Virus record (IMG/VR): IMGVR_UViG_3300020171_000003
Location: 16,533-80,532 of that record
Length of the DNA: 64,000 bases
Source of the DNA: a virus
Reading direction: 5' to 3' (one strand)
Shown piece by piece: positions 79-42,026 of the stretch (position 1 is the first letter of the stretch; every line of letters begins with the position of its first letter). A model generated the notes under the pieces. That model saw only the letters and a program-made list of their open reading frames with translations, did no database searches and was not told where the DNA came from. A program made the translations under genes and the position numbers.

Positions 79-1158
79 TTATTTAAATGGTAGTATATGT
101 TGGAATTTAGATCCGGAAGTGAATAAAGCTTTTTTTATCTCTGTGTCAATTTCAACAGAAGAAGAGGTTGAAAGAATTTCTTTAAGAAAATCAGGATTAA
201 GAGTGATTTCCATTTTCTCATCCTTTTGCAGAACAGTATCACAAGTGATTTCATAAGATGATTCACCTTTTGCTTTCTTTCCAAAGCAAGTGATTTTCTT
301 ATCTTCAAAAATAATCCGAATTAATTTCTCCTTTGCTACTTCTGATTCCGACATAATAGAAGTAACATTTATTGCTTTAATGAAATCATCAGCAGGTAAA
401 TTGAATTTCTTACCTTTTACTTTTTCCATTAATCCAACAACATCATCAACAGGATATTCACCTTCTGTATTTCTTGCACTTAATACAGCTTGATTATCAT
501 CCATAAAATGCAACCAATTATCTTTTAATAGATAAGCAACTGGTTTAAATTTAGCAACTTCTTTAACCGCTTTGTTTTTGATCATGAAATAATCGGAAGT
601 AATTTCCTCATCCATTTCATAAAAAGAAGCTCGTCTACCGTCACAAGAAATAACAGAACATCCGGTAACATAAAGATTTGTGAGTGTGTTTTGAAGTTCA
701 TCACCTCCAACACTAAATTGGCAAAGAGCTAAACCGTTTACAAAGTCTTTCGGCAAAGGTAACCATTCTGCTTCTTGATCAAAAATACTATCCTCAATCT
801 TGTCTAAGGCTTCTCCTAAATCATTTGATACAACAACATTGAAAGACGCTTTAGCTTTACCACTCTTTACATTAATAATACCTTCGGCTGTTTTGATCAG
901 TTGGATATCTTCTTCACTTGCAGACACAAAAGACAGGAACTCTTTTGCTGGTACAGAAAATGGAAAATCAGTTTTAAAAGGATAGTGATAACTGATTCTA
1001 TCATTATAGGTTATTACATCTTCACCGGTGAAAATGAAATGAGTCATTTGCTCGATGACCTCTTTTGCGGCTAAGCCTGGCGAAACCTTCCTCAAAGCTG
1101 ATTCGAGGAGACTCTTTTGGAACTGTGTTGACTGAATTTCTTTTTGTAATTTTGGCAT
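79..1158 (-). CDS. dnaN: DNA polymerase III beta-like sliding clamp
   Basis: 359 aa; clamp-like motifs (SCDGRR, GEYP, ITLNPDFLKEIL, terminal HILP); replication context. Confidence 0.8.
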   Translation of the reverse strand: MPKLQKEIQSTQFQKSLLESALRKVSPGLAAKEVIEQMTHFIFTGEDVITYNDRISYHYPFKTDFPFSVPAKEFLSFVSASEEDIQLIKTAEGIINVKSGKAKASFNVVVSNDLGEALDKIEDSIFDQEAEWLPLPKDFVNGLALCQFSVGGDELQNTLTNLYVTGCSVISCDGRRASFYEMDEEITSDYFMIKNKAVKEVAKFKPVAYLLKDNWLHFMDDNQAVLSARNTEGEYPVDDVVGLMEKVKGKKFNLPADDFIKAINVTSIMSESEVAKEKLIRIIFEDKKITCFGKKAKGESSYEITCDTVLQKDEKMEITLNPDFLKEILSTSSSVEIDTEIKKALFTSGSKFQHILPFK

Positions 1159-2152
1159 CTGGTCTTTCTCCTTTTTTCAAACATAAAATGTTTTCAGAAT
1201 TGTTTTCAAACCAATATGAAATTAATCTACGATATGTACCATCTATTTCTATAACTTTTCCGGACACCTCCACTTCTCTGTCATAGTTTAACATTTGAGG
1301 AAAGTTTCCTGCAAAAAACAAATTTAAATCCATTTGTTTTCCTGCTTCAAGATAAAAAAGCATATTAATGAAATCTCGCTGACTACCATCATTACATACT
1401 CCTGGTTCTATTATTTCTTCTTTACCGTTATTCATTACAGAAGAACCAACTTTAAATCCTAAACTTTCAATGTATTCTTTAAAATATCTTTTTTCTATTT
1501 TTGAGGAAGTTTGATAGTGTTTATTTTGTTCATTTCTTCTTGGACTTCTTTCTGACATTGTTACTATCCAAGGGATCTCATTAAACACATATTTATTTTT
1601 TCGTGTTTTCGGAATAATAATGAGGCCGTATCTTGAGAACTGGACCCAAGAACTTGAATCAACAGAGTACCAAGGATATCTATTCATAAGAGGTAAAGAA
1701 GTCATGGCAAAACCGTGAGTATTCTTTTTGCCAATCATACTGAAAACTTTGTCACCGAAAGATATGTAATCTTTTTTTGACATATCTTGACCGAGTCCTC
1801 CTATACCGATATATTCATAATTATCAATATAGTGTTTCAAGTATTTAAAATCTTCTTTAGGGTGAAAGACAGGTAAAGGGTTTAAATGATGTTTTTCTTC
1901 CAAATACTTCTGAACTTTTAAGGTTCCTTCTGCATTAAAGATTACGTCAATATTAACATATAATTCTAACAAGTCAACATTTTTCTTTACATATTCCGCA
2001 TAGTTATCAACGTAGGTCCAAAACTCTTCGGAGTCATAAAAGGAAAAATCAAGTGTAGAAACATCTTTCCTTTCTTTTTGTTTGTTAATAACATGTTCGG
2101 TGTAAAGGGAATGCGCTCCTGAATCAAGAAATACTTTTATATTTGGATTCAT
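1022..2152 (-). CDS. dpdA: DpdA-like DNA-guanine transglycosylase (TGT fold)
   Basis: FLDSGAHS, NIDVI, PLPVFH, YIGIGGL, HGFAMT, PWYSVDSSSW motifs; beside folE/queD/queE; start taken at ATG 2152 (MNPNIK), not the ORF-track start. Confidence 0.8.
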   Translation of the reverse strand: MNPNIKVFLDSGAHSLYTEHVINKQKERKDVSTLDFSFYDSEEFWTYVDNYAEYVKKNVDLLELYVNIDVIFNAEGTLKVQKYLEEKHHLNPLPVFHPKEDFKYLKHYIDNYEYIGIGGLGQDMSKKDYISFGDKVFSMIGKKNTHGFAMTSLPLMNRYPWYSVDSSSWVQFSRYGLIIIPKTRKNKYVFNEIPWIVTMSERSPRRNEQNKHYQTSSKIEKRYFKEYIESLGFKVGSSVMNNGKEEIIEPGVCNDGSQRDFINMLFYLEAGKQMDLNLFFAGNFPQMLNYDREVEVSGKVIEIDGTYRRLISYWFENNSENILCLKKGERPDAKITKRNSVNTVPKESPRISFEEGFARLSRKRGHRANDSFHFHR

Positions 2153-2153
2153 T

Positions 2154-3245: not shown

Positions 3246-3256
3246 AACTTTTCTCC

Positions 3257-3751
3257 TTATAAGATTGTTTTATCTTGTTTATATAACGGATCATCCAAGC
3301 GGGTAACTTTACCTTTTAGGTGATGAACACTCCACCATTTCAATCTGTCTTTAAATACCAATTTAAAATCTGTGATATACAAAGTTTGGGATTTAGATTT
3401 ATAAGTATAAGGTAAAGCAAGAACTACCCGCATGAATGTCCTATCAAAAAACTTTTCAGGAATAAAATCTAATTGTTTGGGATATTCTATTTCAATTACA
3501 ATTTCATATTCATGGTCTTTCAAAAAAGAAAAAATTTCCTCAGCATTGTAAGGAGGCCCTGGATTATTATCAGCCCCAAAATAAATTCTTCTAATATCCC
3601 GGTTATCTTCTAATGCTTTAATTATCTCCAAAAGTTTTATATATCTATCACCAACAAAAAGAGTTTTTGTCTTTCTTTTTGGACCTTCTACTTCTATTCC
3701 TGTGAAAAGTCGTCTCTTAATCATAAAACACCTCAGCTCCGTTCTCACCAT
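3257..3751 (-). CDS. Hypothetical protein of the deazaguanine cluster
   Basis: FTGIEVEG...TLFV and IYFGA motifs; tightly packed in the operon; true start may be slightly downstream. Confidence 0.6.
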   Translation of the reverse strand: MVRTELRCFMIKRRLFTGIEVEGPKRKTKTLFVGDRYIKLLEIIKALEDNRDIRRIYFGADNNPGPPYNAEEIFSFLKDHEYEIVIEIEYPKQLDFIPEKFFDRTFMRVVLALPYTYKSKSQTLYITDFKLVFKDRLKWWSVHHLKGKVTRLDDPLYKQDKTIL

Positions 3752-4064
3752 CCTCCATTACACAAACGTAAACAACATGATATCCAATGCCTTCTTTCAT
3801 ATCTGCATAAAGTTCATTACATAAATGCTCACAAGATAAGCCGGAATAATTTCTATTCACATAACTTTCTCCGATAATACTATCCAGATCATTTTTAGCT
3901 GTTATAAATTCCACATCTCTATTTTCATGCTCTACTCTGATTTTCATTGTTACATGAAACTCATGTCGGTGAATGCTTCTAAGATAATGTACTTCTTGAG
4001 GAGCATCAGGCCAATTATGAAATGCAGGGAATCTTGTGTTAATAATTACGTTTGTTGGATTCAT
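3717..4064 (-). CDS. dpdL: QueD-paralogous T-fold protein, DpdL-like (candidate CDG decarboxylase)
   Basis: LRSIHRHEF fits the LxxxHRHxF signature recalled for DpdL; RDVEF, SCE and EDGENGA motifs; a canonical QueD is present separately. Confidence 0.6.
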   Translation of the reverse strand: MNPTNVIINTRFPAFHNWPDAPQEVHYLRSIHRHEFHVTMKIRVEHENRDVEFITAKNDLDSIIGESYVNRNYSGLSCEHLCNELYADMKEGIGYHVVYVCVMEDGENGAEVFYD

Positions 4065-4067
4065 TGT

Positions 4068-4667: not shown

Positions 4668-4678
4668 TAAACTTATCC

Positions 4679-5311: not shown

Positions 5312-5319
5312 CTTTCCGG

Positions 5320-6672: not shown

Positions 6673-6681
6673 ATTTCCTCC

Positions 6682-6867
6682 TTATTCTTGTTTCAATAAT
6701 TTTAATCTGATTCCGAAAGGTGTAATTTCTTTCACCTTAAACTTGCTACCTTTGATTTCCAACAGTTCACCAATAGTGAAAATTCCTTTAGATTTAGGAT
6801 ACTTTTTACGCATAATTGCTTCTTCTGGAGGTACTAAATATTCAAAACGTCCTTCGCCTGTATCCAT
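6682..6867 (-). CDS. Small hypothetical protein
   Basis: GGAGGA RBS; operon packing. Confidence 0.55.
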   Translation of the reverse strand: MDTGEGRFEYLVPPEEAIMRKKYPKSKGIFTIGELLEIKGSKFKVKEITPFGIRLKLLKQE

Positions 6868-6876
6868 ACTTCCTCC

Positions 6877-7311
6877 TTAAAATTCTATATTATTTAATTT
6901 ATGCAATGTGAAAGTGAGATTCTCAATACCTTGGGTAACATCATCAACATCCTCCCATAAAGAAGAATTACCATTTTCAATCGCTTCTAAAATAGCTTCT
7001 AAAATATTAATGGCATTACGGACTTTGTCTTTTCTGGATATAATGGGTTTTTGATTTTGAGAATATTTAATTTTGGGGAAGTGGACAAAGAGTTCGTTTA
7101 TTAAATCATCTATTTCGGATAGTTCACAAAGAGCATCATCAACTTCACCTAAAGCATCTTCTACCTTTTCTGCTTTTGCTCCTGAAGCTAACTTTGTTGA
7201 TTGAACAGAACCTAACCATTCGTCTAACTCATCCTTCAAGTTTTCTAAGATTTCTTCTGCATCACTAAAAGCTGTTTCCATATTGTTTGTTACTGAATTG
7301 AATTTAGGCAT
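6877..7311 (-). CDS. Acidic helical hypothetical protein
   Basis: ORF directly below a sigma70-like promoter (TTGACA at 7379-7384, minus strand). Confidence 0.6.
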   Translation of the reverse strand: MPKFNSVTNNMETAFSDAEEILENLKDELDEWLGSVQSTKLASGAKAEKVEDALGEVDDALCELSEIDDLINELFVHFPKIKYSQNQKPIISRKDKVRNAINILEAILEAIENGNSSLWEDVDDVTQGIENLTFTLHKLNNIEF

Positions 7312-20574: not shown

Positions 20575-20784
20575 TCATTTTTAAATCTGAATTGACAGTA
20601 CAATATACCTCTTATATATGTCAACAGTTATTTTCATGCCCAACAAAAATACTTTTTAAATTTCTGAATCCAAAATTTCTACATGAAATTTCTACATCCG
20701 AATGACTATCCGTTTGACTTTTGTTTTTGCATCTATTATATAATGAAGTAACAGATCATAAAACATAATTTTAAACGAAAGGAT

Positions 20785-21153
20785 ATGCAAATGGACGAAC
20801 GGTTTATACAGCAAGAGTCAAAGAGCATCATTTCTATTTTAGGAGATGAAATTTCATACGAGAAGGCTCTTGACGAAACAACGGTTTCTATAGTTGGTTT
20901 TCAAATTCTTTTAGGTCAAGTATATTCAAAAAAAGTAAAAGAAATTGAAATGGTAGGAGGAACAACAAAAGAAAAGGTTAAAACACTCCTATTTAAATTA
21001 AATGATAAAATTATTGCTAAAATGGAAATAAAAATAAATATTGATTTAAAAACAAAGGTAGTTACCCGAAAACTTGATTACTTTTTAACAGAGGAAACAA
21101 ATGAAGCAACAAAGGATCTTATATCTACTTTAGGAAAAGGAAAGATTAAATAA
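20785..21153 (+). CDS. Hypothetical protein, lone plus-strand gene
   Basis: Own promoter-like TTGACT at 20714 and AAGGA RBS. Confidence 0.55.
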   Translation: MQMDERFIQQESKSIISILGDEISYEKALDETTVSIVGFQILLGQVYSKKVKEIEMVGGTTKEKVKTLLFKLNDKIIAKMEIKINIDLKTKVVTRKLDYFLTEETNEATKDLISTLGKGKIK

Positions 21154-21379
21154 GGAAACAGAGAATACTTTGTTTAAGGAATATTGATTTGTTTTAGATT
21201 CAGGATTTGTTGTCTGTTTCATGCAGATGGTAGCAGAGATAGATATTTGAATAGGTATTTAGTTCAACACCACCGGAGGTATTTCACTTTCCCATATGAA
21301 AAAAGTTCTTTGTAACCTTCTATCGTACCTTCCTACAGGAGTTTCCTTCGATTGTGTTTGACCGTCCTGATGAAATAGA

Positions 21380-21971: not shown

Positions 21972-22186
21972 ACTATACAATAATCCTAATAGTACTGTCA
22001 AGCGAAAAAAAGACTATTTTACAGATAACCTCACTAAAACCGACTCTCTACAATCGAGGAGAATCGACGGTCGTTGATCAAGACATAGCAAGACAAGCGT
22101 TCATATATAGATAAAAGAGTGACCAAAAATAACTTAAAATTACCTTAAAATATATCTTGACAAGTGTATGAGGTATAGTGTATAGT
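21972..22186. promoter_or_regulatory. Divergent sigma70-like promoter pair flanking copy 2 of the 37-bp repeat
   Basis: TTGACA-18-TATAGT on both strands (21972-22001 minus; 22157-22186 plus). Confidence 0.8.
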
Positions 22187-22223
22187 CAAAATAAAACAGT
22201 AAATCAAACAAAGGAGAAGCAGA

Positions 22224-23010
22224 ATGGTAATCGTAAAAAACATTGAAACAGGCAAAGTGACACGTTGTGCCGGGGTTTACAGAAATTCGCAAGGTTACAT
22301 GATTGATGTTTTAAACACACACGAATATCCAGAAATCTTTAAGAAATCCGGAGATGTTTTCAAAGAACTGTTTCAAGAACAGTTCATGCCAAGATTTTTG
22401 TCAAGTAACTACAAAGTGATTGCGGTGTAAAGGAGAATTAAAATGGAACATTGGACAGAGTATAGAGCAGAGGAAATTGACAGTAATGATTTATCATTAT
22501 ATTTTACTTGTTCTCGTAGATTGTGGAAAGCTTTGCTGAAAAACAGATTTGTTGGTTATCAAAAATTTTATAAAGGAGAATGAAATGAATAAGGCAGAAA
22601 AATTAGTAAAAAGGATCGCGGAAGAAAACAAAAATTTAAATAGAGGAGAAATTATGCATCAAGTATATGATGCGGTACAAAAAAAGATAGGCAAAACAGA
22701 AGATGGATTTTATCACTATCCTCCGGAGTATGACAAAGCACTTCGGGAATTGGAATATAAATTAGGATTCTAAAAAAGGAGAAGAATAATGGAAAATCAA
22801 GAAATAATTGACAGGATTGTGTTTGCATACAAAATGGAAGAAGGGTCAGATTTAGAGCATGAAGGTTTTGTCTTCAAGGAAGAAGAGTTCAAAAATTTCT
22901 TTCAAGGATTTCTTGTTGCTCATGAGGAAATGGGTTCTATTACAGCAGATCAGTATAAGGAATTGACGGATTTTGTCAAGGAAGCAAAATACAAAGTGAT
23001 TTCGGTGTAA
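22224..23010 (+). CDS. Small early hypothetical genes (22224-22430, ~22585-22773, 22789-23010)
   Basis: AAGGAG RBS before each. Confidence 0.6.
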
Positions 23011-23016
23011 AGGAGA

Positions 23017-23655
23017 ATGAAAATGGAATTAGAAAACAATTATTGGGTGGACAGTAATAACAATAGCTGGAATAAAAGTTTATACTCAAAAGAAGAGGCA
23101 GAGAAATATAGCAATACTTTACGGAATTGTCGGTATTGTCAGGGTTGTCAGGATTGTCAGGATTGTCAGGATTGTCAGAATTGTCAGGGTTGTCAGGATT
23201 GTCGGAATTGTCGGTATTGTCTGGATTGTCAGAATTGTCAGGGTTGTCAGGATTGTCTGGATTGTCAGAATTGTCAGGGTTGTCAGGATTGTCGGAATTG
23301 TCAGGATTGTCGGAATTGTCTGGATTGTCAGAATTGTCAGGATTGTCAGGATTGTCAGGATTGTCAGAATTGTCAGGGTTGTCAGGATTGTCGGTATTGT
23401 CAGGGTTGTCAGGATTGTCAGAACTTTAAAACAAATCCCCAAAGGATCTTTTCAGAAAAACAAGGCTCCCGAAAAGATCAAACAGAAATTTATTGGGACG
23501 ATTTACACACACAAGTTAATTGCGGATGTTTTCATGGAAACTTAGCGGAATTTGAAAACAGAGTTATTGAGGTTCATGGGGATAATAAATTTGGAATAGA
23601 GTATTTAGCATGGATTAAACGAGTAAAACTATATATTGGAATTAAAAATTTCTGA
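23017..23655 (+). CDS. (Cys-x-x)33 repeat protein with conserved C-terminal GSR...CGCF domain
   Basis: 33 tandem 9-bp units at 23128-23424; C-terminus resembles that of phage repeat-solenoid proteins. Confidence 0.8.
   Translation: MKMELENNYWVDSNNNSWNKSLYSKEEAEKYSNTLRNCRYCQGCQDCQDCQDCQNCQGCQDCRNCRYCLDCQNCQGCQDCLDCQNCQGCQDCRNCQDCRNCLDCQNCQDCQDCQDCQNCQGCQDCRYCQGCQDCQNFKTNPQRIFSEKQGSRKDQTEIYWDDLHTQVNCGCFHGNLAEFENRVIEVHGDNKFGIEYLAWIKRVKLYIGIKNF
23128..23424 (+). repeat. 9-bp tandem repeat TGTCNGNNT x33
   Basis: Read directly; last unit ends AAC. Confidence 0.97.
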
Positions 23656-23776
23656 ATTGAAAATTTCTACATGGAATTTCTACAAAGAAGGGAGGTGATA
23701 AGTAAACAGATACAAAAGGAATAAAAACTTAAAATAAGATCAATCATAAACTGAAAATAAAGAAGGGATAATAAAC

Positions 23777-24121
23777 ATGAAAAGGACAGAAATAGAATAT
23801 GTGAAGAAAAATGACGGTAAGATCTATGTAGTAGGTTTTAAGAATGTTGCCACAAGGAAGGATTTGTTTTTAGAAGTTGGTTTAGCAATATATAATGAGT
23901 ATATAAATTCAGGTGAGTATTATTTTTTAAGTGGCTCGGATAAAGATCAAATAATAGTAAGACATCCTCATTCCTGTTATCTGTATTTTATTTATAAGGA
24001 TTGTTCTTATGAACCAAAGGAATTTTATAATAGAATACAATGGATAAAGAATGCAGGTGAGAATCTAAAGAAGATAAAGGATAACATTGCTAATAGAAAG
24101 GTTCAGACAATCATTATCTAA
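23777..24121 (+). CDS. Hypothetical protein
   Basis: RBS; followed by hairpin terminator 24148-24188. Confidence 0.6.
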   Translation: MKRTEIEYVKKNDGKIYVVGFKNVATRKDLFLEVGLAIYNEYINSGEYYFLSGSDKDQIIVRHPHSCYLYFIYKDCSYEPKEFYNRIQWIKNAGENLKKIKDNIANRKVQTIII

Positions 24122-24331
24122 ACCAAGCAATAAACAGAGAAAAGAACAAGGAATTAAATAATAACCAAAATTAATTCCTTTTCTTTTTCATATTTTAAAC
24201 CATTTATTAGAATTCCATAACCTGGTTAAGAAAATTAATATAGGAATATTACAAAAACACCGGAGGTATTTCACTTTCCCATATGACCAAAACTACTTCC
24301 TGATCCTCATTATCGAATAGTATTTAAACAT

Positions 24332-24602
24332 TGAATAAGCTTCAGTTAATGAATACCATTCAGAAAATGAATAAGCCTCAGAAAATGAATAAGCCTCAGA
24401 AAATGAATACCATTCAGAAAATGAATAATCCTCGAAAATATTCAGAAAATAAATACCGTTCATTTAATTATCACCATTCAGAAAATGAATTGCCTTTAGT
24501 AAACACCATTTATTCATTAAATATCATAAATATAATAAATGAACTTCATTCATTAAATAAGCCAAAGATAATGAATGACATTCAACTAATGAATATCATT
24601 CA
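24332..24602. repeat. 18-bp-period repeats and TGAAT-N3-ATTCA palindromes
   Basis: CAGAAAATGAATAAGCCT-type units; perfect palindromes at 24350, 24404, 24572, 24590. Confidence 0.85.
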
Positions 24603-24611
24603 TTTTTACTT

Positions 24612-24686
24612 CTACATGCAAAAAACTATAATCATTTCCAGATATAAAATAGAAGTGATTAAAACAGCATAAAAAAACATTTTCAT
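24612..24686 (-). CDS. 24-aa hydrophobic peptide (not in ORF track)
   Basis: MKMFFYAVLITSILYLEMIIVFCM; same AGAAAGTGAGA leader as the upstream gene. Confidence 0.45.
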   Translation of the reverse strand: MKMFFYAVLITSILYLEMIIVFCM

Positions 24687-24707
24687 AGTATCTCACTTTC
24701 TGTTTGA

Positions 24708-25356
24708 AGTTTATTTTTAAATAGTCTCTTGCTTGATAATTAATAAAAACAATTTACTTACTTTCATTCACTTTCAATGCTGTAAAATAATCATTGAATT
24801 TCTTTTCATGTTCTGTTCTCAGAACAACAAACACTTTTTTATTTTCTTTCAAGACTCGCATTTTGTGTGACTGTTTGCTTTTGAGATAAGACAAATGTGA
24901 ATTGACACGACTTTCTTTTGTAGCAGCTTTTTCTGCTATTTCTTTTATTGTCAAACGACTGAAAAGCAAGCAATCATTGATAACATGTGCATTGCTCGTC
25001 AAGCTGTTATCAAAAAAATCAATCTCACGACTTGACGTTTTTGACGCTTTTTCTTTTACTTTTTCAGCTTGCTTAATATCGAAAAAATACTTACATGCTG
25101 TTTTCATTTCAATGTTATCGCACGTTGAACATTGACTATCTTTTTCATCAAAAAAAGAAAATGCTTTACAATAATTTATAGCATTTTCAAACGTAAAATC
25201 TTGAACGTCTGTTACTTTTTCAACGTCTTTTTCAACTTCAATATTCTTATCTTTATTCTTATCTTTTTTTGCTATATTTTTTGGATTCATAATAGTCTCA
25301 CTTTCTATGCTGTTAAGCACGTTTAAATGAAGCAAGAGACTATTTAAAAATAAACT
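24708..25356. repeat. Perfect 27-bp inverted repeats (24708-24734 and 25330-25356) flanking one gene
   Basis: AGTTTATTTTTAAATAGTCTCTTGCTT and its exact reverse complement. Confidence 0.92.
24754..25290 (-). CDS. Zn-binding/winged-HTH protein with no Gly or Trp
   Basis: Start MNPKNIAKK at ATG 25290; C..CSTC..C; LTIKEIAEKAATKESRVNSHLSYL. Confidence 0.75.
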   Translation of the reverse strand: MNPKNIAKKDKNKDKNIEVEKDVEKVTDVQDFTFENAINYCKAFSFFDEKDSQCSTCDNIEMKTACKYFFDIKQAEKVKEKASKTSSREIDFFDNSLTSNAHVINDCLLFSRLTIKEIAEKAATKESRVNSHLSYLKSKQSHKMRVLKENKKVFVVLRTEHEKKFNDYFTALKVNESK

Positions 25357-26175
25357 GATATGTCAAAGAACAAATTTTCTAACAAGAGTCAAAAGCAGCT
25401 AATTTCTGTTTTGTTGCTTTTTTCATCATGTTAGTAATCTAAAAGATCATATAAATAACTTGATTACAGAACTATCATACTTTTATCAACAGAGTCAAGA
25501 CTTTTTTTTAATTAATATCACTTTTTTTTTAATTAATATCATTTTTCTGCATTCACTCAATGAATACAAGCTTAATCAATCAAATAACACTAAAAAAATG
25601 TAATAAAATCAATAACAACTTATTCAGATGAACGACATGACACGATAATCACATAGTCAATACTAACACAAGCATAATTTCTATGCCCGAAATAACTATC
25701 TATAATCATAGTACTATTAATCATACGTTTATCAATCATTCTCATATATCGTCAATTCTCGTTCATTAAAATATAATTAATAATAATAAACTAAATAAAA
25801 CAAATTAATAAACTATTAATCAATCATTGAATATAATTCATTCTATTACTCATTCATTATTACTTAACTCATTCTATATTGCTTCATGCATTGTCTAACA
25901 CTCTGTTCATTTATTAATTGAATGATATTCATTATTGCTTTCTACATAGATTAATACTTTCTATATTATCTGAATGTCATTCATTTGTTCGTGCGGTTTA
26001 CGGGCGGTAGGATAAGAGAAGGTGAGTTGGTAGTGGAGCGCGGATAGTAATATGATATGACTATCATGTATCATGACTATCATGCATCATCTGATTGACT
26101 CATTCAATCAGTTGTCTCAGGTTGTTATACGAGACGGTATTGTCTCAATATGATACAGTTTTTTTTATCTAATAA

Positions 26176-26188
26176 TATCAATAGGTTA
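26176..26188 (+). promoter_or_regulatory. IHF consensus site
   Basis: TATCAA-TAGG-TTA matches WATCAANNNNTTR. Confidence 0.5.
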
Positions 26189-26195
26189 TGAAAGT

Positions 26196-26223
26196 AGTTT
26201 ACATAATACTCGTTATCAGACGT
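26196..26223 (-). other. dif-like XerCD recombination site
   Basis: Minus strand ACGTCTGATAA-CGAGTA-TTATGTAAACT, 11-6-11 architecture with a XerD-type arm. Confidence 0.65.
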
Positions 26224-26620
26224 ACAAAAAAACAGTCAAAACCCCCCTGGTTTCATCTCAAAAAGTTCGGAAAATAGTGATTTGGGGACCACGCCGAAAT
26301 ATTTATACCAGATGCAAAAGTGAAGCATAGCCGTGACGAATAGCAGCAGACCATTATCATTTTAAAACGAATCCTGTTAAACCATTAATTAAAAATAACG
26401 AATATAGAAAAACAGGGATTTAATAAAAGGAAACCTGAAAAAATGCAATCCGGATGAGTAAAAGTGAAGCATAGACCATCCAAACATGAAAAACCATGAA
26501 AACAATTCAAAAACACAAAGTTTCCTATGCTCTGAGTCTTTTTTACATGCCAACCGAAACTATTTCTTGACATTTATAGATGAATATCATAGAATAATAG
26601 ATATGAAAGGAGTACAAAAG

Positions 26621-27226
26621 ATGGCAATAAAAGCAATGCAAAGCGTAACCAGAGTACCAACCACATACGATTCACTCATATCCGGATTAGCCGTGAATGA
26701 AGAAAAGCAATCCGTAGTCCGTCCGTTATACACTTGGGATTACGTCCAAGAATGCACGGAACGCTGTCCGGCTTATGAAGGAACCACATGTCATTTCAAT
26801 AAGGATGTCCGGACGAATAAGCGGTGTAAGGTGATGGACATGTATTTGAAAGGTGTAGCGGATACGGTGATGTTAGCATACCCGAAGGATGAGATAATTG
26901 ACCCAAGAACATTGTGGAGAGTCGGAATGCATCTCATGCCGTTGTACCAGATGTTAGGACGGATGAAGATAGAGGAGGCCACGTTTCATACTGTTATATT
27001 TACGGATGATAAAGGCCGAAGGAAAGCCAACCCAATATATAAGGAGATACGGGAGACATTGAAACAGATTGAAAGTGCTTGGAGGGACTTGAATCTCGGA
27101 GGAAGTTTGGGGGAAGGTTATCTGGACTTCGGAGATAAGAGTCCGTCGGGCAGAGGTGCTAATTTAACTGATCCGGATGATTATTATACCCGGATGCAGA
27201 AAGGCGGGAGGCAGGTGAAGACATGA
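26621..27226 (+). CDS. terS: Probable terminase small subunit
   Basis: KANPIYKEIRETLKQIESAWRDLNL (P27-like NP motif); first gene of the late arm; AGGAG RBS before ATG 26621. Confidence 0.6.
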   Translation: MAIKAMQSVTRVPTTYDSLISGLAVNEEKQSVVRPLYTWDYVQECTERCPAYEGTTCHFNKDVRTNKRCKVMDMYLKGVADTVMLAYPKDEIIDPRTLWRVGMHLMPLYQMLGRMKIEEATFHTVIFTDDKGRRKANPIYKEIRETLKQIESAWRDLNLGGSLGEGYLDFGDKSPSGRGANLTDPDDYYTRMQKGGRQVKT

Positions 27227-27741
27227 GAAATCCTTGTTTGAAGTGTAAACGGCATTTGAAGGGTTTGGATAAGAATGGACCGGAGTGTACGGAGTGTTTG
27301 CTTCGGCTTCAATATGCCCATAGTATTGAAGTGAAGGATGAGGATGAGACCCTTCAAGTACGGAATTGGAGAAAGTGTAAGGTGTGCGGTACGGAAAAGA
27401 TATTGGAAGAGGAATATAATCGGAAGGGTAGAAAGAAAGGTGAGTATGTTGACACCTGTAAGGAGTGTATGGGTGAATCAATTATGCGGGCACGGGAAGA
27501 AAAAGCCGTAGCGAAGGTTACTATTATGATTAAGGATAAAGGACTGCATACATGGTTGAAAGAAAGAGCGGGTAAGGAATTCCGAACAGTAGAGAACCAG
27601 ATATTGTTCTTTCTTACTATGGTGAAGGACTTAGAGAATACGACCGTGATTGAAAAGAAAACTTTGTTTGAAGACGGACGGAAGCCCCAGCCTGTGTATA
27701 GAAGTTTTGACGAGATTGGTAAAATAGATAAGGAGGAGTAG
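27223..27741 (+). CDS. Zn-finger protein with Arc-like C-terminal segment
   Basis: Four CxxC pairs; LHTWLKERAGKEFRTVENQILFFL. Confidence 0.55.
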   Translation: MRNPCLKCKRHLKGLDKNGPECTECLLRLQYAHSIEVKDEDETLQVRNWRKCKVCGTEKILEEEYNRKGRKKGEYVDTCKECMGESIMRAREEKAVAKVTIMIKDKGLHTWLKERAGKEFRTVENQILFFLTMVKDLENTTVIEKKTLFEDGRKPQPVYRSFDEIGKIDKEE

Positions 27742-27745
27742 AAAA

Positions 27746-28693
27746 ATGATTAGAGGACAAAAATATTTAGTGACTACGGAAGAATATTTTGTAACCCCAA
27801 ACGGGAAACAATATAAAGCTGCTTTTGGTGAATATAAAGGTAAGGCGGCTTTCGGTGTTGATTTTACTTACATCGGAAATATTGCTTTAAAAACGGATAA
27901 AATTTATTCTGCGGTAAAGACGGATGAAGTTGATTTTGGAAATAAGCAAGATGAATGGAGTGAAAAAGGAGAAATGCGAGATACTTGGATTTATAATGCA
28001 GAATAATTAGTTTCCTCCGACTTGTAAAAGGGTAATGGTAAAAAGCCCAGGTGATAGTTCGGGAGTGCTAAAGCACAAGTCGGAGGATTTTTTAAAGGAA
28101 TATAAATGATTAAACTGTGCCCAAAATGTAGAGGAACACTCATATTAGAAGATCGTGTCCTTTTTTGCATAGATTGTTTGTATGTAGTTGATCGCTTTTT
28201 AAAAAGGGAAAAGCTTGACGATGATATCCGTTCGCTAAGGAGTAAAGGATTATCGTGGGCCTCAATAGGAAAACGAGTAAACAGAACAGCAATGGCAGTT
28301 AGACGACGGTTCATCATTGCTTTTGGTAAAGATCATGAGTTAATGCAGGATATTCAGAAAGTGAAGGATCAGAAAGAAACAACATTGCTTTCTTATCTAA
28401 TGAAAGAAGATGGGTTATCCTATTCTTTTATTTCAAAGGAACTTGGCATAAGTATAAATGCTTGTAAGCAGAAGGTCAGGAGAGAAAGGATGAAATTATA
28501 AATTATGGATTGGAAAACAAAAGAAACAGCAAAGGCAATTATAACGTCACTTAATGTAGGTGATAAATTAAAAGACCTCACAAATAAGCATTTAGCAGAC
28601 CTTCTTTTAAAACACATTTGGTCGAAATATGATGTTTTCAGCCATGAAAGTGATTTGTTAGAGGAAGTTATTGAAAGATTAAGGAAAGGATGA
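27746..28693 (+). CDS. Three small genes (27746-28006; 28106-28501 Zn-ribbon + double HTH; 28505-28693)
   Basis: CPKC/CIDC and GLSWASIGK/GLSYSFISKELGIS helices in the middle gene. Confidence 0.55.
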
Positions 28694-28697
28694 AAGA

Positions 28698-30575
28698 ATG
28701 TCGGTAAACGGTTTACGGAAGGCTGTTAAAGAAGTAGAAGAAATTACATATAGATCAGGCGGAGAGGGAATGATTGCTTGGTGTGATGATAAGGTTAGGT
28801 TACCTATTTACCCGACTGAATCAGAAATAGCAATTTGGTGGCCGTTAGGTGATTTACCCCAAGAGAAGAATCCTAAGACAGGAAGGAGTTATCAAGACCT
28901 CTGGGACTTTCATAAGATGGTTCTTAAAGAAGCTTTGCAGATGGATGATCATCATAGATTTCTTTATAGACTTATTGTTTTTTGTTGGATGCGTGGTGAA
29001 GGTAAATCAATTCTTGCGGTTCTTATTCAATTATGGAAATTCTTTAACTGGCCAAGACAATTAATAACTCTTGGTGCAAATAGTAAGGATCAGATCAAGT
29101 TTGTCCATTTTGAATGGATGAGAGATATTATTTTAAACTCACCAGAACTTTTAAACGATATTGGTGGGAAAATGAATATTAAGGAGAAATATATTCAGAT
29201 GAAAGATAGTAGAGGACGTATCCAGTCAACAATTCGTCCTATCTCAACTGCTACAGGTATTGTGTCAAACATTACTGGGTACACTTTCTCTGAAATCTTT
29301 GCTATGAAGAAACCAGACTTCTTCACCCAGTTAGATGGTTCCATTCGTAATATTCCAAATGCTTTAGGTGTTATTGATTCTACTGTTTCCTCAAAAAAGC
29401 ATGTTCTCTATCAGTTATATAGTAATGTTCTTTTAGGTAAAACAAAGAATGTTTATTTTTCTTATCGGTGTTCCCCTGCTGGTAATTATGAAGATTTTTC
29501 TCATCCACATATGGATCAAGATCAGTTAGATGATTATGAAATCAAGTTTCCTTTTGGTGAGTTTGATAAATACTTTAAGAATACTTGGTCAGCAGGTTCT
29601 CATAAAGTTTTTTCCCATACGATGGTTGAAGAAATGAGTATTATTTCAGCAAAAGGTTCTTTTTATGATCATGCTCAAATTAAAGAGTTATTGGATAAGA
29701 AAGAACATTTGATTGATATGCGGACGAGTGTTGAGCAGAAAACATTTAGTAATGAAAGAAGTTTAGAAGGCATTGCGAAACGATTAGGAGATATAATTGA
29801 TTGTTTTGAACCAGTTGATACTTTATACACCCTTTCAGATGGACAAGGAAGACCTAAAGCAGCTACTTTAGATGATTTAATGTTTTTAGGAGAAAGATTT
29901 GATACTGATTGGGTTATTCTTGCAGGAACAGACTTTGGAGATCCTTACTCAACTGCGAGTAATGCAAGAACCATTGGAGTAGTCCTTGCAAAAGGTTTAC
30001 CTGGTTCTAAATCTGATCCTTCTCTTTATTTGAGAACACCTACAGCACCTCAATATATTTATTTTTTATTAGTCCTTTCTGTTTCTTCTGAGCATTCTAT
30101 TAATACTATAAAGGAAAGTATGGAATATGCTCACAATGAGTTCTTAGGAATTGATTCTTTATGTAGTGAGCATTACGGAGCTTGGGATATAGGACAATGG
30201 TCTGAAGATAGAGAAATACCGTTTACTCCTATTCATCCTAATTATGAAAAACAAAAAGATTGTTTTAAAGCTTTGCTTGAATGCGGGAAAGAAGGACGAA
30301 TTAAATTTCCATCTAAGATAGGTATTCCTGGTTCTAAATCAAACAATATATTAATAGAAGAACTTGAAGAATTTGATCATGATGTAGATTTAAAATGGTT
30401 CGGAAGTACAGAAAAGAGTGAAAGATATGGTATTCAGGATGATGTTGTTTATGCAATAGGGTGGGGTTTATATGGCGGAAGAATGCTCGGGGTTGATGAT
30501 TTTAGAATACGAGTTCGTAAAAGAAGTTTCGGTGAAATGTCAGTTCCTTCAGGGTTGTTAGGTAGATATACCTAG
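28698..30575 (+). CDS. terL: Terminase large subunit
   Basis: RGEGKS Walker A, GANSKDQ, nuclease GTDFG and QDDVVYA; precedes portal. Confidence 0.88.
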   Translation: MSVNGLRKAVKEVEEITYRSGGEGMIAWCDDKVRLPIYPTESEIAIWWPLGDLPQEKNPKTGRSYQDLWDFHKMVLKEALQMDDHHRFLYRLIVFCWMRGEGKSILAVLIQLWKFFNWPRQLITLGANSKDQIKFVHFEWMRDIILNSPELLNDIGGKMNIKEKYIQMKDSRGRIQSTIRPISTATGIVSNITGYTFSEIFAMKKPDFFTQLDGSIRNIPNALGVIDSTVSSKKHVLYQLYSNVLLGKTKNVYFSYRCSPAGNYEDFSHPHMDQDQLDDYEIKFPFGEFDKYFKNTWSAGSHKVFSHTMVEEMSIISAKGSFYDHAQIKELLDKKEHLIDMRTSVEQKTFSNERSLEGIAKRLGDIIDCFEPVDTLYTLSDGQGRPKAATLDDLMFLGERFDTDWVILAGTDFGDPYSTASNARTIGVVLAKGLPGSKSDPSLYLRTPTAPQYIYFLLVLSVSSEHSINTIKESMEYAHNEFLGIDSLCSEHYGAWDIGQWSEDREIPFTPIHPNYEKQKDCFKALLECGKEGRIKFPSKIGIPGSKSNNILIEELEEFDHDVDLKWFGSTEKSERYGIQDDVVYAIGWGLYGGRMLGVDDFRIRVRKRSFGEMSVPSGLLGRYT

Positions 30576-37695: not shown

Positions 37696-39762
37696 TTGAA
37701 AATGAAAAAAAAGATATTATTTGTAGGTGAAGCACCTTACGCATTTACTGGTAATTCTAATATGATGAATGCTTTACTTTCATCTGTTGATACTGATAAA
37801 TACGAGGTGTGTTGTTTTGGTTCAGGTGAGTCTCAAATAAAAGGAGATTCTATATTTCATTCTATGCCTTTTACTATTATCCCTTCTTTCAAACACGGTG
37901 ATTTTTGGGGTAATGTCCATTTGTTAGAAGTTATTAATTCAAGTTCTTTTGATGTATTATTTATGGTAGGAATAGATTTGTGGAGATATGCTTCTATTTT
38001 TCCTGAAATAGTGAAATTAAGACAAGTTAAAAAATTTAAATGGGTATTTCTTTTTCCTTACGATTTTGAAAATTACAGACGAGAATGGGCAGGTTGGATT
38101 AATGCAATAGATATTCCGTTAGTTTATTCCCAGTATGGAGAAGATCTTTTAAAAGAATATCATCCTAATATTACTTACTTTAGACCACCTTTGTTTGGCT
38201 CAGAGATTTTTACTTCTTTCCCTGTTGAGCAAAAGAAGATGGAAAAAAGTAAAATATTTTCTCAAGTAGCAAACAAGTTTATTTTTGGTTTTATTGGTCA
38301 GAATCAATTACGAAAAGATCCTTTAAGAGTTTTAGAAGCTTTCTCTTTGTTCCATAAAAAGAATCCAAATACTGCTTTATATCTTCATACAGAAAATCAA
38401 GGTCCAAAAGGGGTTTATAATATAAATCAAGCTGTGTTTGATCTTGATTTTCCTCCACATACAATTTTACTTAAAAAAGAAGGTCAAATTTACAGTCAAT
38501 TGGATATGATCCGAATTTATAATGCAATTGATTGTTTAGTGAATGCTTCTTTTCAAGAAGGTTTATCTTGGACAGTTTTAGAAGCAATGTTATCAGGATG
38601 TCCTGTTATTGCTTCGGATACAACCGCTCATCCTGAGTTATTATGGGATGCAGGCATTCTTGTTAAAAGAACGGATCGAGTTCTTTTACCAATAGGAGGT
38701 ATTACTGAAGGTGTTGTTTATGCTTCTACTCATGCGTGTAATACTGAAAAATTAGCGGAAGCAATGGCTACTATGTATTTAAATGATGAATATAGATTAG
38801 AATGTTCTGAACAAGGTTTACTTAGAGGAAAAGAATGGTTAGCAAGTGTTTCTAATGTGAATGATGTTTTAGATGTTGTTTCTATAGAGAAACCGGTTCA
38901 AAGAGTAGAAAGAATAAAAGGTGTTTTATTTGGTCAAAAAGCAAGTGCTGGTGACATTCTAATGACTACACAATGTTTGAAAGGACTGAAAGAACTTCAT
39001 CCGGATTTGCCTTTAAATTACATGACTTCTCAAAAATATATGAATATTTTAGAAGGGAATCCGTATATTGAAAATATTTATTCTTGGGATGATTCTTTGC
39101 CTGCTCGTTTTGATTTTTATTACAATCCACATGAGCAACGTATTTTACCAGGACATTGGGGTAGAAACTCAAATTCCCTATTGTCGGACTTTTATTGGAA
39201 AATTTTAAAAGTAGAACCTGGTTCGTTTTTTATTTATCCTCAAGAAATTCCTTCTGAATTTTCAGTTAAAATTCTTTCAGTAGATAGACCCATTGCTGTT
39301 GTTTATTCCGCAGGAGCAGATAGACCTTTTAGAGAATACCAATATTTTGGAATAGTATGCAATGAGATTAAAGATAGATATGTTACAATTCAATTAGGAG
39401 GACATGATGATTATCCTGCAGGAGCAGAAATTGATCTAAGAGGACAACTAACTTATAGACAAGAAGCTTGGGTAGTCCAGAGAGCTTCACTTGGTTTAAC
39501 TGTGGATACTTTTGGAGCACATTTAGTAGGTGCTTTAGGTGTTTCTCAAGTTACTTTACCAGGTTCAAGTAATAGCAGGGTAGTTCAACCAAAACAAACA
39601 GCAGGTGATCTTATTATATTAGATCCTGATTATGTAAAAGTGTGTCCTGGTTTAGGGCCTTGTTCTGCAAGTGTTAGAGATTGTCCTTTGCCTTGTATTG
39701 GTTCTATTTCTCCTAAAAAAATTATAGAGTCAATTGATTTTATAGAAAGGAAGGGTTTATGA
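37696..39762 (+). CDS. Two-domain glycosyltransferase (GT4-like + GT9 heptosyltransferase-like)
   Basis: GQNQLRKD, EGLSWTVLEAMLSGCPVIASD; then SAGDILMTT, NPYIE, IDLRGQLT, VDTFGAHLVGALG. Confidence 0.88.
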   Translation: MKMKKKILFVGEAPYAFTGNSNMMNALLSSVDTDKYEVCCFGSGESQIKGDSIFHSMPFTIIPSFKHGDFWGNVHLLEVINSSSFDVLFMVGIDLWRYASIFPEIVKLRQVKKFKWVFLFPYDFENYRREWAGWINAIDIPLVYSQYGEDLLKEYHPNITYFRPPLFGSEIFTSFPVEQKKMEKSKIFSQVANKFIFGFIGQNQLRKDPLRVLEAFSLFHKKNPNTALYLHTENQGPKGVYNINQAVFDLDFPPHTILLKKEGQIYSQLDMIRIYNAIDCLVNASFQEGLSWTVLEAMLSGCPVIASDTTAHPELLWDAGILVKRTDRVLLPIGGITEGVVYASTHACNTEKLAEAMATMYLNDEYRLECSEQGLLRGKEWLASVSNVNDVLDVVSIEKPVQRVERIKGVLFGQKASAGDILMTTQCLKGLKELHPDLPLNYMTSQKYMNILEGNPYIENIYSWDDSLPARFDFYYNPHEQRILPGHWGRNSNSLLSDFYWKILKVEPGSFFIYPQEIPSEFSVKILSVDRPIAVVYSAGADRPFREYQYFGIVCNEIKDRYVTIQLGGHDDYPAGAEIDLRGQLTYRQEAWVVQRASLGLTVDTFGAHLVGALGVSQVTLPGSSNSRVVQPKQTAGDLIILDPDYVKVCPGLGPCSASVRDCPLPCIGSISPKKIIESIDFIERKGL

Positions 39763-40454
39763 GACCTTTAGTAATTGCTTCAAATATGTTAATGGAAGCG
39801 AACAATGATTTAGAAGGTTGGATTGAGAATATGCAACAAGTTACTGATTTGGGCATTCTTGTTGTGGACGGCGGTTCTACTGACGGAACAAAAGAGATTT
39901 TAGAGGCTGCTGGAGTTATTGTTATTACAGATAATATAATTCAAAGAGAAGGATACGGACCTGCAAGAAATCAATTAAGAAAACTTTGTAAAGAGAACTT
40001 TCCAGAAGCTCATTGGATGGCTTATTTTGATGCTGATGAAAGAATCAATGAAAAAGACATTCATTTTTTGAAATGGGTTCAAAACTATTTAAATGAAAGC
40101 GTTTCTGATGTTGTTGCTTTTCCAAGAATTGATTGGTTTGATAAAGAGAAAACTAAATCAAATAATGATATACGGATAGTTCCGGATTTTCAAGCAAGAA
40201 TGACAAGATTAAATGCTCCTTTGGAATATATAAGAATTTGTCATGAACAGATTGTAACAACTAAAGGCATTTTTTGTAATATAGATGTTTGTCCGCCTAT
40301 TCATCATTTTCATAGGTCAGCAAGTAAAGATAAGCGTGATTACATTGGTAAGGTCTGTGCTATGCTTCATTCTAAAGATCCATATGGACATACTTATCCG
40401 AAACACCATAAAGAAGATTATTATTTTGATTTGTATCAGAAAGAAGGTTTATGA
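39759..40454 (+). CDS. GT2 (GT-A) glycosyltransferase
   Basis: VVDGGSTDGTKEI, ARN, FDADE, PDFQAR, HEQI. Confidence 0.88.
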   Translation: MRPLVIASNMLMEANNDLEGWIENMQQVTDLGILVVDGGSTDGTKEILEAAGVIVITDNIIQREGYGPARNQLRKLCKENFPEAHWMAYFDADERINEKDIHFLKWVQNYLNESVSDVVAFPRIDWFDKEKTKSNNDIRIVPDFQARMTRLNAPLEYIRICHEQIVTTKGIFCNIDVCPPIHHFHRSASKDKRDYIGKVCAMLHSKDPYGHTYPKHHKEDYYFDLYQKEGL

Positions 40455-41083
40455 AGGAAGAAATTTTTATTTTTGGAAATTCTATGTGCTGTACTCCTTC
40501 TAAGGAATCTTATCTTGATTTACTGAAACAAGATTATGATGTTAACGGTATGTGGATGAGAGGAATGACAATTTGGCATGTTAATAAATATCTAAGAAAT
40601 ATTGTTAGAGGAGATAATTCTTGGATAATTATTAATGTAGGAATAGTTGAGGCTGTTACTAGAAAATCCTATCATGTTTTATACTATTGGTTAAATGAAT
40701 TACTTTCACATGATGCTGATGAACTGTTTAAAGAAACTATTTTACCATACTTGCAAAATATTTCTTTAAGTATGGATAAAGAAGATGTTTCTTTTTGGAA
40801 TATAATTCCATCCGGTTGTTTTTTACGGTTGTTTGAACTTTGTTTAAAAAAATTAGAAAGTTATAGAATCATTGTGGTAGGACCTGCTTATCCAAAACCT
40901 TTAGAAAATACTTCAAGATTTTCTATTTGTATTAATTATGCTTCTATTCTAAAAAATTTAGAAAAAATTTATTTTATTGATACTTGGAACAAGTGTAAAG
41001 AGGATTCTATTGATGATGCTCATTTGAATGCAAATGGACATAAAAAGATTTACAATCTCATAAAGGAGAAAATTAATGGATAA
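40451..41083 (+). CDS. SGNH/GDSL-fold esterase or acyltransferase
   Basis: IFGNS, NVGIVE, DDAHLNANGHKKI. Confidence 0.7.
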   Translation: MKEEIFIFGNSMCCTPSKESYLDLLKQDYDVNGMWMRGMTIWHVNKYLRNIVRGDNSWIIINVGIVEAVTRKSYHVLYYWLNELLSHDADELFKETILPYLQNISLSMDKEDVSFWNIIPSGCFLRLFELCLKKLESYRIIVVGPAYPKPLENTSRFSICINYASILKNLEKIYFIDTWNKCKEDSIDDAHLNANGHKKIYNLIKEKING

Positions 41084-42026
41084 AAGAAATGTGTTTACCT
41101 CTACAGGAATAAAATTATTACAACATCCGGAAGTCATACATTTTTTACAGAGAGGACGATTTATTCCTGTTTCATTACAAGTTGCCCCTACTTCAAGATG
41201 TAATTTGAATTGTTCCTTTTGTTCTAACAGCAAAAGGAGTAAACATGAAGATTTGGATAGAAATGAATTGTTTTATTTTATTGATGTTTTACAAAGAACA
41301 GGACTTAAAACAGTAGAAATCACTGGTGGCGGTGATCCTACAATGTATCATAGCATTAATGAGTTGATAGAGTGTATTTATGAATCTGATCTGGAAGTCG
41401 GATTAATTTCAAATGGTATTTTACTTAAAGAGAAAATTAGTCCTAGAAATTTAAATTCATTAACTTGGTTAAGAGTCTCTTTAAACTCGTTGGAGTATTG
41501 TGACGATATTGATTTACCTAAAATTAATGGTACACTGGGATTCAGTTTTGTAATTCATTCTAAAAATATAAATAACATATTAAAATATGGTAAAAGAATA
41601 AGAAAATTGGTGGATAAGTACCATGCTTCTTATGTCCGCATTGTTCCGGATTGTTTACCTGGAGAAGATGAAAAAAGATTGAATGTAATCTGTGAAGCTT
41701 TTGTTCGTGAATTTGGGGAACCGTTTTTCTTTCAAGAGAAGATTTTTAGGAAACCAGATAACTGTTGGTGGGGATATTTAAAACCGTTTCTTCTTCATGA
41801 TAAGTTTGTTTATCCTTGTAGTTCTGTTGTTCTTAATTCAGGATCTGAAGGAGTATTTCATGAAAAATTTAGAGTAGCTACTATGGATGATTTTCTTTTA
41901 AATTATAGACAAGGTTTTAAAGTAAATTCTTTTCCTACAGCTAATTGTGATAGGTGTGTTTTTGCAAATCAGAATGATATGGTAGATTCAATTTTGAATC
42001 CTAATAAAATGAGGAATTTTTTATAA
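41076..42026 (+). CDS. Radical SAM enzyme with C-terminal Cys-rich (SPASM/twitch-like) domain
   Basis: CNLNCSFC, ITGGGDP, ISNG, VYPC, CDRC. Confidence 0.9.
   Translation: MDKRNVFTSTGIKLLQHPEVIHFLQRGRFIPVSLQVAPTSRCNLNCSFCSNSKRSKHEDLDRNELFYFIDVLQRTGLKTVEITGGGDPTMYHSINELIECIYESDLEVGLISNGILLKEKISPRNLNSLTWLRVSLNSLEYCDDIDLPKINGTLGFSFVIHSKNINNILKYGKRIRKLVDKYHASYVRIVPDCLPGEDEKRLNVICEAFVREFGEPFFFQEKIFRKPDNCWWGYLKPFLLHDKFVYPCSSVVLNSGSEGVFHEKFRVATMDDFLLNYRQGFKVNSFPTANCDRCVFANQNDMVDSILNPNKMRNFL

Follow-up and report, generated by a model that had tools for sequence, protein, structure and literature searches.

The 64,000-nt window analysed here (bases 16533-80532 of the 80,532-bp IMG/VR record IMGVR_UViG_3300020171_000003) belongs to an uncultured phage recovered from a groundwater metagenome, and contains a 1.36-kb island from which the dinucleotide GG and its complement CC are almost entirely missing (Table 1). 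The record is self-closing, being a circular assembly with a 127-bp overlap. Left of ~22 kb the genes point leftward, among them those of a DNA polymerase, a clamp, a helicase, a primase-like protein and the deazaguanine operon; right of ~26.5 kb they point rightward, among them those of a Cys-rich protein, TerL (28698-30575), portal and capsid. The island sits between this leftward early/replication block and the rightward packaging block. Only a single convincing gene can be recognised in the island on the basis of the open reading frame (ORF) list and fold, and its product is a winged-helix DNA-binding regulator according to structure prediction.

The GG/CC positions that survive in the island are confined to one GG (25283, within a Pro codon) and one CCC (25686-7), leaving GG/CC-free gaps of 645, 403 and 308 bp, compared to gaps of at most 88 bp elsewhere in the genome. 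Other dinucleotides are present at 0.7-1.5 of expectation, with GC enriched 1.5-fold and CG at a normal level, while the GC content of the island is 0.26. Outside the island, GG/CC occurs at or above expectation throughout the genome. With the protein sequence held fixed and genome codon usage applied, 12.5 ± 3.4 GG/CC are expected in the ORF and 1 is seen, a value as low as this being reached in none of 5000 simulations. The codons GCC, ACC, TCC, AGG and CGG are unused in the ORF, as are codon junctions creating GG or CC, and the ~640 bp of non-coding island DNA obey the same ban. Since both GG and CC are banned, its target is double-stranded DNA, or each of the two strands, as opposed to a single mRNA. 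Codons for Gly (GGN), Pro (CCN) and Trp (TGG) are excluded because the whole cassette bans the GG/CC step; hence, the composition of the encoded protein is a by-product of a nucleotide-level ban rather than of protein-level selection. Every GG-containing site or protospacer adjacent motif (PAM) is missing from the island, bar its 3 GG/CC positions. General restriction-site avoidance was considered and rejected, given that 4-nt palindromes are near expectation, i.e. undepleted, across 9.9 kb of pooled GG-free islands.

The island ORF runs to a stop at 24754 on the - strand from either of two possible starts, a TTG at 25335 (193 aa) or an ATG at 25290 (178 aa). The residue counts given in a first-pass annotation of the sequence are correct, with the 178-aa product containing 0 Gly, 0 Trp and 1 Pro. 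Its Gly+Pro+Trp (G+P+W) fraction is 0.006, the next lowest being 0.045 and the median 0.108 among the 84 ATG-initiated ORFs of ≥100 aa in the 80.5-kb genome. An AlphaFold2 model based on the family alignment predicts helices at residues 100-110, 115-121 and 126-139 and strands at 143-147 and 152-156, with predicted local distance difference test (pLDDT) scores of 90-97 across residues 100-140. The predicted winged helix (residues 100-156) is followed by a terminal helix and preceded by a four-cysteine segment and a disordered Lys-rich tail. Foldseek matched the model to MepR, ZitR and SmtB with a probability of 0.98-1.0, at an E-value of just 3e-3, and an Atlas structure search with the model returned ArsR/MarR clusters. 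The family profile matched NarL/GerE helix-turn-helix (HTH) domains in the PDB with an E-value of 2.7e-4. The predicted three helices and beta-hairpin wing, followed by a C-terminal helix, thus resemble MarR and ArsR-SmtB regulators (best structural matches MepR, ZitR, SmtB and NolR). In contrast to these regulators, sequence matches lie below curated cut-offs, and the four-cysteine N-terminal module and Lys-rich tail appear as additions. The best Pfam match was HTH_40, at 17.2 bits versus a curated cut-off of 27. The earlier description as a DNA-binding protein therefore agrees with the predicted winged helix and its fold matches.

No relative of the island protein was retrieved via a word index of 5.8 billion proteins, and back-translated scans of viral contigs yielded no match. 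A HMMER search of 1.84 billion representatives returned four relatives. Labels starting with G refer to genomes (G000 being this phage), with L to loci and with P to homologous proteins; L063 corresponds to G001, L086 to G003, L102 to G002 and L215 to G013. The family comprises the island gene, the product of 4679-5311, P0122-P0125 and the copies found in L063, L007 and L071. A 12-sequence alignment reveals a C-terminal motif, FGHRIxSQAxxIDxxLLxG...T..EIA...RVxSHxxHL, in which R128 and H132 are invariant, and family hidden Markov model (HMM) matches in relatives range from E 8e-15 to 1e-6. The alignment made by eye in the first-pass annotation (FDNSLTSNAHVIN vs LGSRKGSQAYDID) fits this family-wide motif. 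The paralogy proposed there with the 4679-5311 product is real but limited in extent, consisting of 14/34 BLASTP identities (32 bits, E 2e-6) over the helix-turn-helix; tblastn of the genome recovers the pair with an E-value of 3.3e-4. The island copy is closer to the homologues of other phages than to the 4679-5311 product. An N-terminal C...C-x2-C...C module is present in the island protein, in P0122-P0125 and in the normal copies of L063, L071 and L007; the 4679-5311 product lacks the Cys4 module and has a different N-terminal domain.

The closest homologue, P0122, is 47% identical to the island protein and likewise contains 0 G/P/W, while three distant homologues contain 7-13 Gly and 1-15 Pro. 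Two copies are found in each of L063/G001 and L007, a normal copy with 14-17 Gly and 11 Pro, and a copy in a GG/CC-free island with 0 G/P/W. Family members with 0 G/P/W are thus known beyond this phage from L063, L007 and P0122, i.e. at least 3 other lineages. As to whether homologues in other phages also lack these residues, a check put forward in the first-pass annotation, this holds for P0122 and for the L063 and L007 island copies, but not for the distant homologues or the normal copies. The conserved Gly of FGH and that of LxxG are substituted in all four island copies, in accordance with the proposal that the protein has been recoded at an amino-acid cost. Island copies are no more alike among themselves than island and normal copies are, with the L063 island copy scoring best against the L063 normal copy (domain bit scores). 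This hints at repeated recruitment of island copies, the bit-score signal being too weak to distinguish one from several origins.

The cassette is a self-contained and conserved unit, made up of the gene, the inverted repeats that flank it and, to either side, clustered copies of a 13-bp palindrome (Table 1). In the predicted mRNA fold, pairing of the two repeat arms would enclose the entire message in a single stem. Gene-flanking inverted repeats are present in four lineages and are unrelated in sequence between them, measuring 30 nt here, 52 nt in L007, 17 nt (perfect) in L063 and 24 nt in L055. An inverted form of the repeat-flanked segment was not found in the assembled contigs of sequencing runs; low-depth runs leave the island uncovered, from which no conclusion is drawn. 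The palindrome TGAAT-N3-ATTCA occurs 7 times in the window versus 0.34 expected, with all copies within 24350-25983 framing the island, and these are likely candidate operators judging by their sequence and placement. Contigs from two low-depth groundwater runs fold back at the palindrome TGAAT-GTC-ATTCA (25952-25983), most likely an assembly artefact of the palindrome.

Table 1 Features of the window. Positions are those of the 64,000-nt stretch; a full stop marks features without strand.
Feature	Coordinates	Strand	Evidence and remarks
DpdA, DNA guanine transglycosylase, DpdA1-like	1022..2152	-	phrog_887, E 2e-38; ~35% identity to 9g/BRET enzymes
GT-B glycosyltransferase-like protein (by eye), 363 aa	2154-3245	-	Adjoins DpdA; no Pfam/PHROG match
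DpdL-like QueD paralogue, proposed 7-carboxy-deazaguanine (CDG) decarboxylase	3717..4064	-	LxxxHRHxF signature; 37% identity to Cellulophaga phage phiST gene; weak PTPS match
Family member of normal composition: N-domain, acidic/basic linker, winged helix	4679..5311	-	Between folE and queE, beside helicase
Four TGAAT-N3-ATTCA palindromes	24350..24602	.	Left of island; partly within 18-bp tandem repeats (24321-24440)
GG/CC-free island, 1.36 kb	24638..25995	.	3 GG/CC positions vs ~46 expected
Inverted repeat, left arm, 30 nt	24708..24737	.	Just 3' of stop codon; arms 97% complementary, spaced by 589 nt
Island gene, 178-aa Cys4 + winged-helix DNA-binding protein (predicted)	24754..25290	-	ORF, composition, AlphaFold2 model, fold matches, family alignment
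Inverted repeat, right arm, 30 nt	25327..25356	.	37-66 nt upstream of ATG
Three TGAAT-N3-ATTCA palindromes	25828..25983	.	Right edge of island
Sharp right boundary	25995..26042	.	9 GG within 48 bp directly past island
Cys-rich protein, conserved	26486..27226	+	tblastn matches in G001-G008 and G010; adjoins TerL upstream in relatives

The packaging module right of the island starts with the gene of the Cys-rich protein, which is possibly the small terminase subunit as judged by position only. Just right of the island, a segment at 26500-28000 spanning the Cys-rich gene and an HNH/EndoVII-like gene is enriched in CCG/CGG (14-23 per 500 bp versus 2-6 nearby) and has a higher GC content. To the left, two ~640-bp cassettes (20658-21299 and 23646-24286) carry one gene apiece; they share common ends (36/39 and 29/29 identical), their cargo ORFs are unrelated, and one contig of the source run has the same ends joined around other sequence. 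Among 50,697 phage records, nothing matched 22000-28000 by megablast or TerL by tblastn.

Islands devoid of a short word are also present in many relatives of this phage. In about 10 of 80 viral loci (TerL 49-57% identical), a 0.5-2 kb stretch upstream of TerL has GG/CC at ≤0.2 of expectation, and a contig of a metagenome-assembled genome (L234) also contains a GG/CC-free island. The word-free islands of relatives lie 1-8 kb upstream of TerL and have a GC content of 0.29-0.41, with observed/expected GG/CC counts of, for example, 0/49, 0/43, 2/83, 2/139 and 12/139; some contain two or three extra small ORFs besides the regulator gene. A purely compositional (AT-rich) explanation was rejected on the grounds that several of these islands have a GC content of 0.38-0.41 and still show 0-12 GG/CC versus 43-139 expected. 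When the 11 strongest cases, namely G000 and 10 loci, are mapped onto a TerL tree, they do not cluster, and 10 changes are needed to account for them. As most relatives are fragments, the absence of an island is firm for whole genomes only.

The identity of the banned word is specific to the lineage. Scanning all strand-symmetric 2- and 3-mers at the equivalent place revealed that all GGN are banned, with none left, in G000, G001, L007, L031, L032, L055, L071 and L234. GGW is banned in G004, L049 and the unrelated G012 (observed/expected in G004 and G012, respectively: GGA 1/25 and 0/27; GGT 4/25 and 3/27), and GGC is kept (56/17 and 52/25). GGB is banned in G006 and L022, G006 containing GGC 0/50, GGG 7/51 and GGT 8/68 and keeping GGA (134/69). 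GGD is banned in L231 (GGA 1/48, GGT 4/46, GGG 6/41), where GGC is kept (97/40). The words CGG in L005 (1/36), GAG in L229 (1/22) and GAT in G002 (4/47; also GG-poor) are banned in single cases. Where other GGN are banned, the allowed GGN codon is over-used 2-3 fold, as would be expected if glycine codons are rerouted to it. GGA-poor stretches were found in G003, with GGA 1/24 over 1,060 bp, and G005, with 2-7 GGA versus 14-26 expected over ~3 kb; in both, the winged-helix gene of the family lies in or beside the GGA-poor stretch. An apparent ‘GC-free island’ in G013 was rejected because it consists of hexamer repeats: ~900 bp of the (GAGACC)n type, broken by a repeated 60-bp unit, occupy 28709-29602 of G013 (L215) between QueE and QueD. 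Salmonella phage SSU5 has no strict GG/CC-free island within 1-50000 or 60000-103299. A 262-264-aa protein (G001 39108-39896 and G006 40456-41250, 37% identical; the G006 copy without Pfam match) is common to these two island-bearing relatives, in which DpdA was not detected, and was not found in the other genomes examined.

The first-pass annotation placed the partner of the island gene, 4679-5311, within the deazaguanine operon. This assignment did not hold, given that its N-terminal domain and helicase position are kept in relatives without deazaguanine genes: the N-terminal domain matches a helicase-adjacent gene in G002 (E 2e-6), in G008 (without DpdA, E 2e-5) and in G003 (without DpdA, E 0.03, same domain order). 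Hence, 4679-5311 belongs to the gene set of the clade, and the operon was put together around it. The interval between helicase and clamp (79-7311 of the window; 53.7-54.7 kb in G006, 3.9-6.9 kb in G008 and 5.8-7.0 kb in G003) has variable contents, i.e. the deazaguanine operon, N6/N4 methylases, a thymidylate-synthase-like protein (by eye) with a radical-SAM/methylase fusion, or a radical-SAM-like protein (by eye). The 4679-5311-type gene is constant whichever modification genes are present, and the interval looks like an exchangeable ‘modification slot’. In G003 (4159-5322, L086) and G005 (23633-24802), the conserved winged-helix protein encoded by this gene measures 387-389 aa, and its winged helix follows extended acidic and Lys/Pro/Ala-rich segments, a layout that recalls linker histones.

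The deazaguanine operon itself contains DpdA, the GT-B-like protein, DpdL, FolE, QueE and QueD. QueC is not among the operon ORFs scanned or in the genome ORF list, no search having been aimed at it. DpdL is recognised by the signature LxxxHRHxF replacing CxxxHGH in a QueD-like T-fold (PMC10516641). By reference to that work, the modified base is likely 7-deazaguanine or 7-carboxy-deazaguanine; the DpdL signature and the lack of QueC in the scanned ORFs point to dDG or dCDG, the 2'-deoxynucleosides of these two bases, and not to preQ0-type DNA. The DpdA beside DpdL is DpdA1-like here and DpdA3 in phiST. The GT-like 363-aa protein has 113 relatives in viral contigs, and is found in a deazaguanine module (FolE-QueE-QueD-DpdL) in 5/5 whole records retrieved through it, with DpdA detected in 4 of them; it might attach an additional group to the deazaguanine base. 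In the G002 operon, the GT-like gene and DpdL are separated by the gene of an extra 453-aa protein (L102 6486-7847), radical-SAM-like by eye; this window has no such gene, and a weaker relative is present in G015.

The first-pass annotation also tied the island to guanine modification, in that the gene would be recoded for expression from unmodified DNA. DpdA, judged by tblastn, was found in eight genomes. At least two complete genomes, G003 and G005, lack DpdA and nevertheless have GGA-poor islands, and G006 has a 2-2.6 kb GGB-free island with no deazaguanine genes and two N6/N4 methylases in the equivalent slot. Conversely, none of five phages of other TerL types with the DpdA-GT-DpdL module has a GG/CC-free island: a GGA-free stretch does occur in two of these module carriers, G012 and G015, and no island was found in G011, G013 and G014. 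DpdA relatedness does not track the banned word, as G004 and G012 both ban GGW with DpdAs just 32% identical and no closer than other pairs. FolE was not found in five island-bearing fragments, which are 14-26% complete and hence uninformative. The proposed tie was thus not upheld, and the link between island and deazaguanine is, as far as gene content goes, partial at best. As DpdA-less relatives also have a banned word, its reader would be something other than the deazaguanine system itself. Overall, the winged-helix protein and its recoding at amino-acid cost survive from the first-pass annotation, while operon-gene status of the partner and dependence on DpdA do not.

A possible explanation for the island is that it constitutes the earliest-acting DNA of the phage and escapes a host factor reading short words, by a logic similar to first-step transfer in T5; we place this first, while giving it somewhat short of an even chance. 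The cassette would have to be spared by a factor recognising words of 2-3 nt in double-stranded DNA; it would be the first-entering or earliest-acting DNA, near the packaging end, and the only stretch of the genome that a host nuclease system could reach until protection is established. The reader might be, for example, a CRISPR PAM reader, with short GG-type words fitting PAMs best. The regulator, probably autoregulated via the palindromes, would then start the programme. We rank a host reader first because 2-3-nt words of the GG type fit PAMs better than restriction sites. In rightward, lambda-type packaging, DNA just upstream of the packaging genes is the last packaged and the first ejected. 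By analogy, the cassette lies at the place at which a phage that packages rightward would have such DNA.

T5 resists restriction-modification, CRISPR and Ssp provided that sites are absent from its first-step-transfer region (PMC10644984). In addition, spacer capture by type II systems has been described as favouring the free ends of injected DNA, and type III systems as favouring early genes (PMC13575424). The proposed likeness to T5/BF23 is that a small, first-acting piece of DNA must lack host nuclease sites, and the region is rich in repeats and palindromes in both T5 and this cassette. Unlike in T5, the banned word is just 2-3 nt, the purge is essentially total and it costs three amino acids; the cassette furthermore measures 1-2 kb versus ~10 kb, and encodes a regulator instead of host-takeover genes. 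Two-step entry, terminal position and early expression belong to T5, whereas the cassette is known from sequence alone. The island also resembles motif avoidance by phages (restriction sites; PAM depletion, PMC4246573) in that a short defence-read word would be removed on both strands. In contrast to genome-wide avoidance, just a single unit of 1-2 kb is purged here, all but completely and at the expense of protein composition.

Several points weigh against a host reader of earliest-acting DNA. The data are assembled contigs, and sigma-70-type promoter matches are no commoner than in shuffled sequence. Unlike in T5, the island of this phage holds only the regulator, and genes for anti-defence or host takeover are missing from it. 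Modification is probably already present in the virion DNA and should in itself shield incoming DNA. The depleted regions of G003 and G005 are 7-10 kb away from TerL and do not adjoin it. Finally, G000 and G002, the complete genomes with most words banned, both carry DpdA-GT-DpdL, so that a link to self-modification may exist in these lineages.

In a rival explanation, the banned word would be the target of the phage's own DpdA1-like guanine modifier, with the cassette left unmodified so that the regulator gene and the sites of its protein work on ordinary DNA. We consider this unlikely, while deserving of serious weight. Characterised DpdA1 motifs are 2-3 nt long, namely GA and GGC in CAjan (PMC7544227) and GA in iggy (PMC10484667). 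The DpdA of this phage is DpdA1-like and is accompanied by FolE, QueD, QueE and DpdL, and the banned words are likewise 2-3 nt long, start with G and vary by lineage. A motif-free island is not mentioned in PMC7544227, PMC10484667 or PMC10516641. The GGA-free stretches of the unrelated module carriers G012 and G015 fit a modifier, and in the wider sense of an own marking enzyme, so do the two methylases occupying the slot of the DpdA-less G006. These similarities to the CAjan and iggy systems are countered by the word-poor islands of relatives that lack DpdA, in particular the complete G003 and G005, by the three module carriers in which no island was found, and by the failure of DpdA sequences to group by banned word. 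Furthermore, the host RNA polymerase would have to read the modified rest of the genome anyway; a phage RNA polymerase was not noticed in general ORF and family scans, none of which was a search aimed at one.

In another rival explanation, the reader would be a function conserved in the clade with a drifting short specificity, either a DnaG-type primase, the island being a priming-free zone, or an H1-like winged-helix protein coating GG-type words, the island copy being its early uncoated counterpart. A DnaG-type primase (Pfam, G006) and the N-domain/basic-linker/winged-helix protein are present in clade genomes whatever their modification genes, and the island gene is paralogous to the latter. 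Primases use trinucleotide sites that differ between enzymes, which counts in the same direction. A priming-free zone around one regulator gene has no evident benefit, and we regard this reading as improbable. That the island is nothing functional, i.e. an AT-rich intergenic or foreign segment with a spurious ORF and loss of GG/CC through composition, is close to negligible in our estimation: the island is AT-rich and its protein has no match above the curated Pfam cut-off, but the relatives' islands of higher GC content are depleted too, GC and CG dinucleotides are undepleted here, a 47%-identical homologue and family members exist in several phages, and the C-terminal domain fold is predicted with confidence. 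Hence, the host short-word reader is placed first, an own marking enzyme second and another clade reader third, with the remainder left to readers not thought of.

A DNA-sequence constraint strong enough to strip three amino acids from a conserved family, conserved glycines included, is unusual and easily scored in any genome. It is quite possible, if less than evenly probable, that many unrelated tailed phages keep a 1-2 kb word-free ‘leader’ cassette of regulator, inverted repeats and operators, with proteins rewritten where needed so as to avoid Gly, Pro or Trp, due to an undescribed reader of the lineage-specific 2-3-nt word (host defence or phage enzyme) that acts there first. For the deazaguanine field, the results suggest caution, in that the island and the folE/queE-flanked gene are features of the phage clade and not of the modification operon. 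As the banned word varies among close relatives, the island would read out the specificity of a factor acting at the very start of infection. Should this factor be the phage's own modifying enzyme, the island would give its target motif without biochemistry. If it is instead a host defence, such as a CRISPR PAM reader or short-site nuclease, the island would predict the defence types of the hosts of uncultured phages and mark the first-entering DNA.

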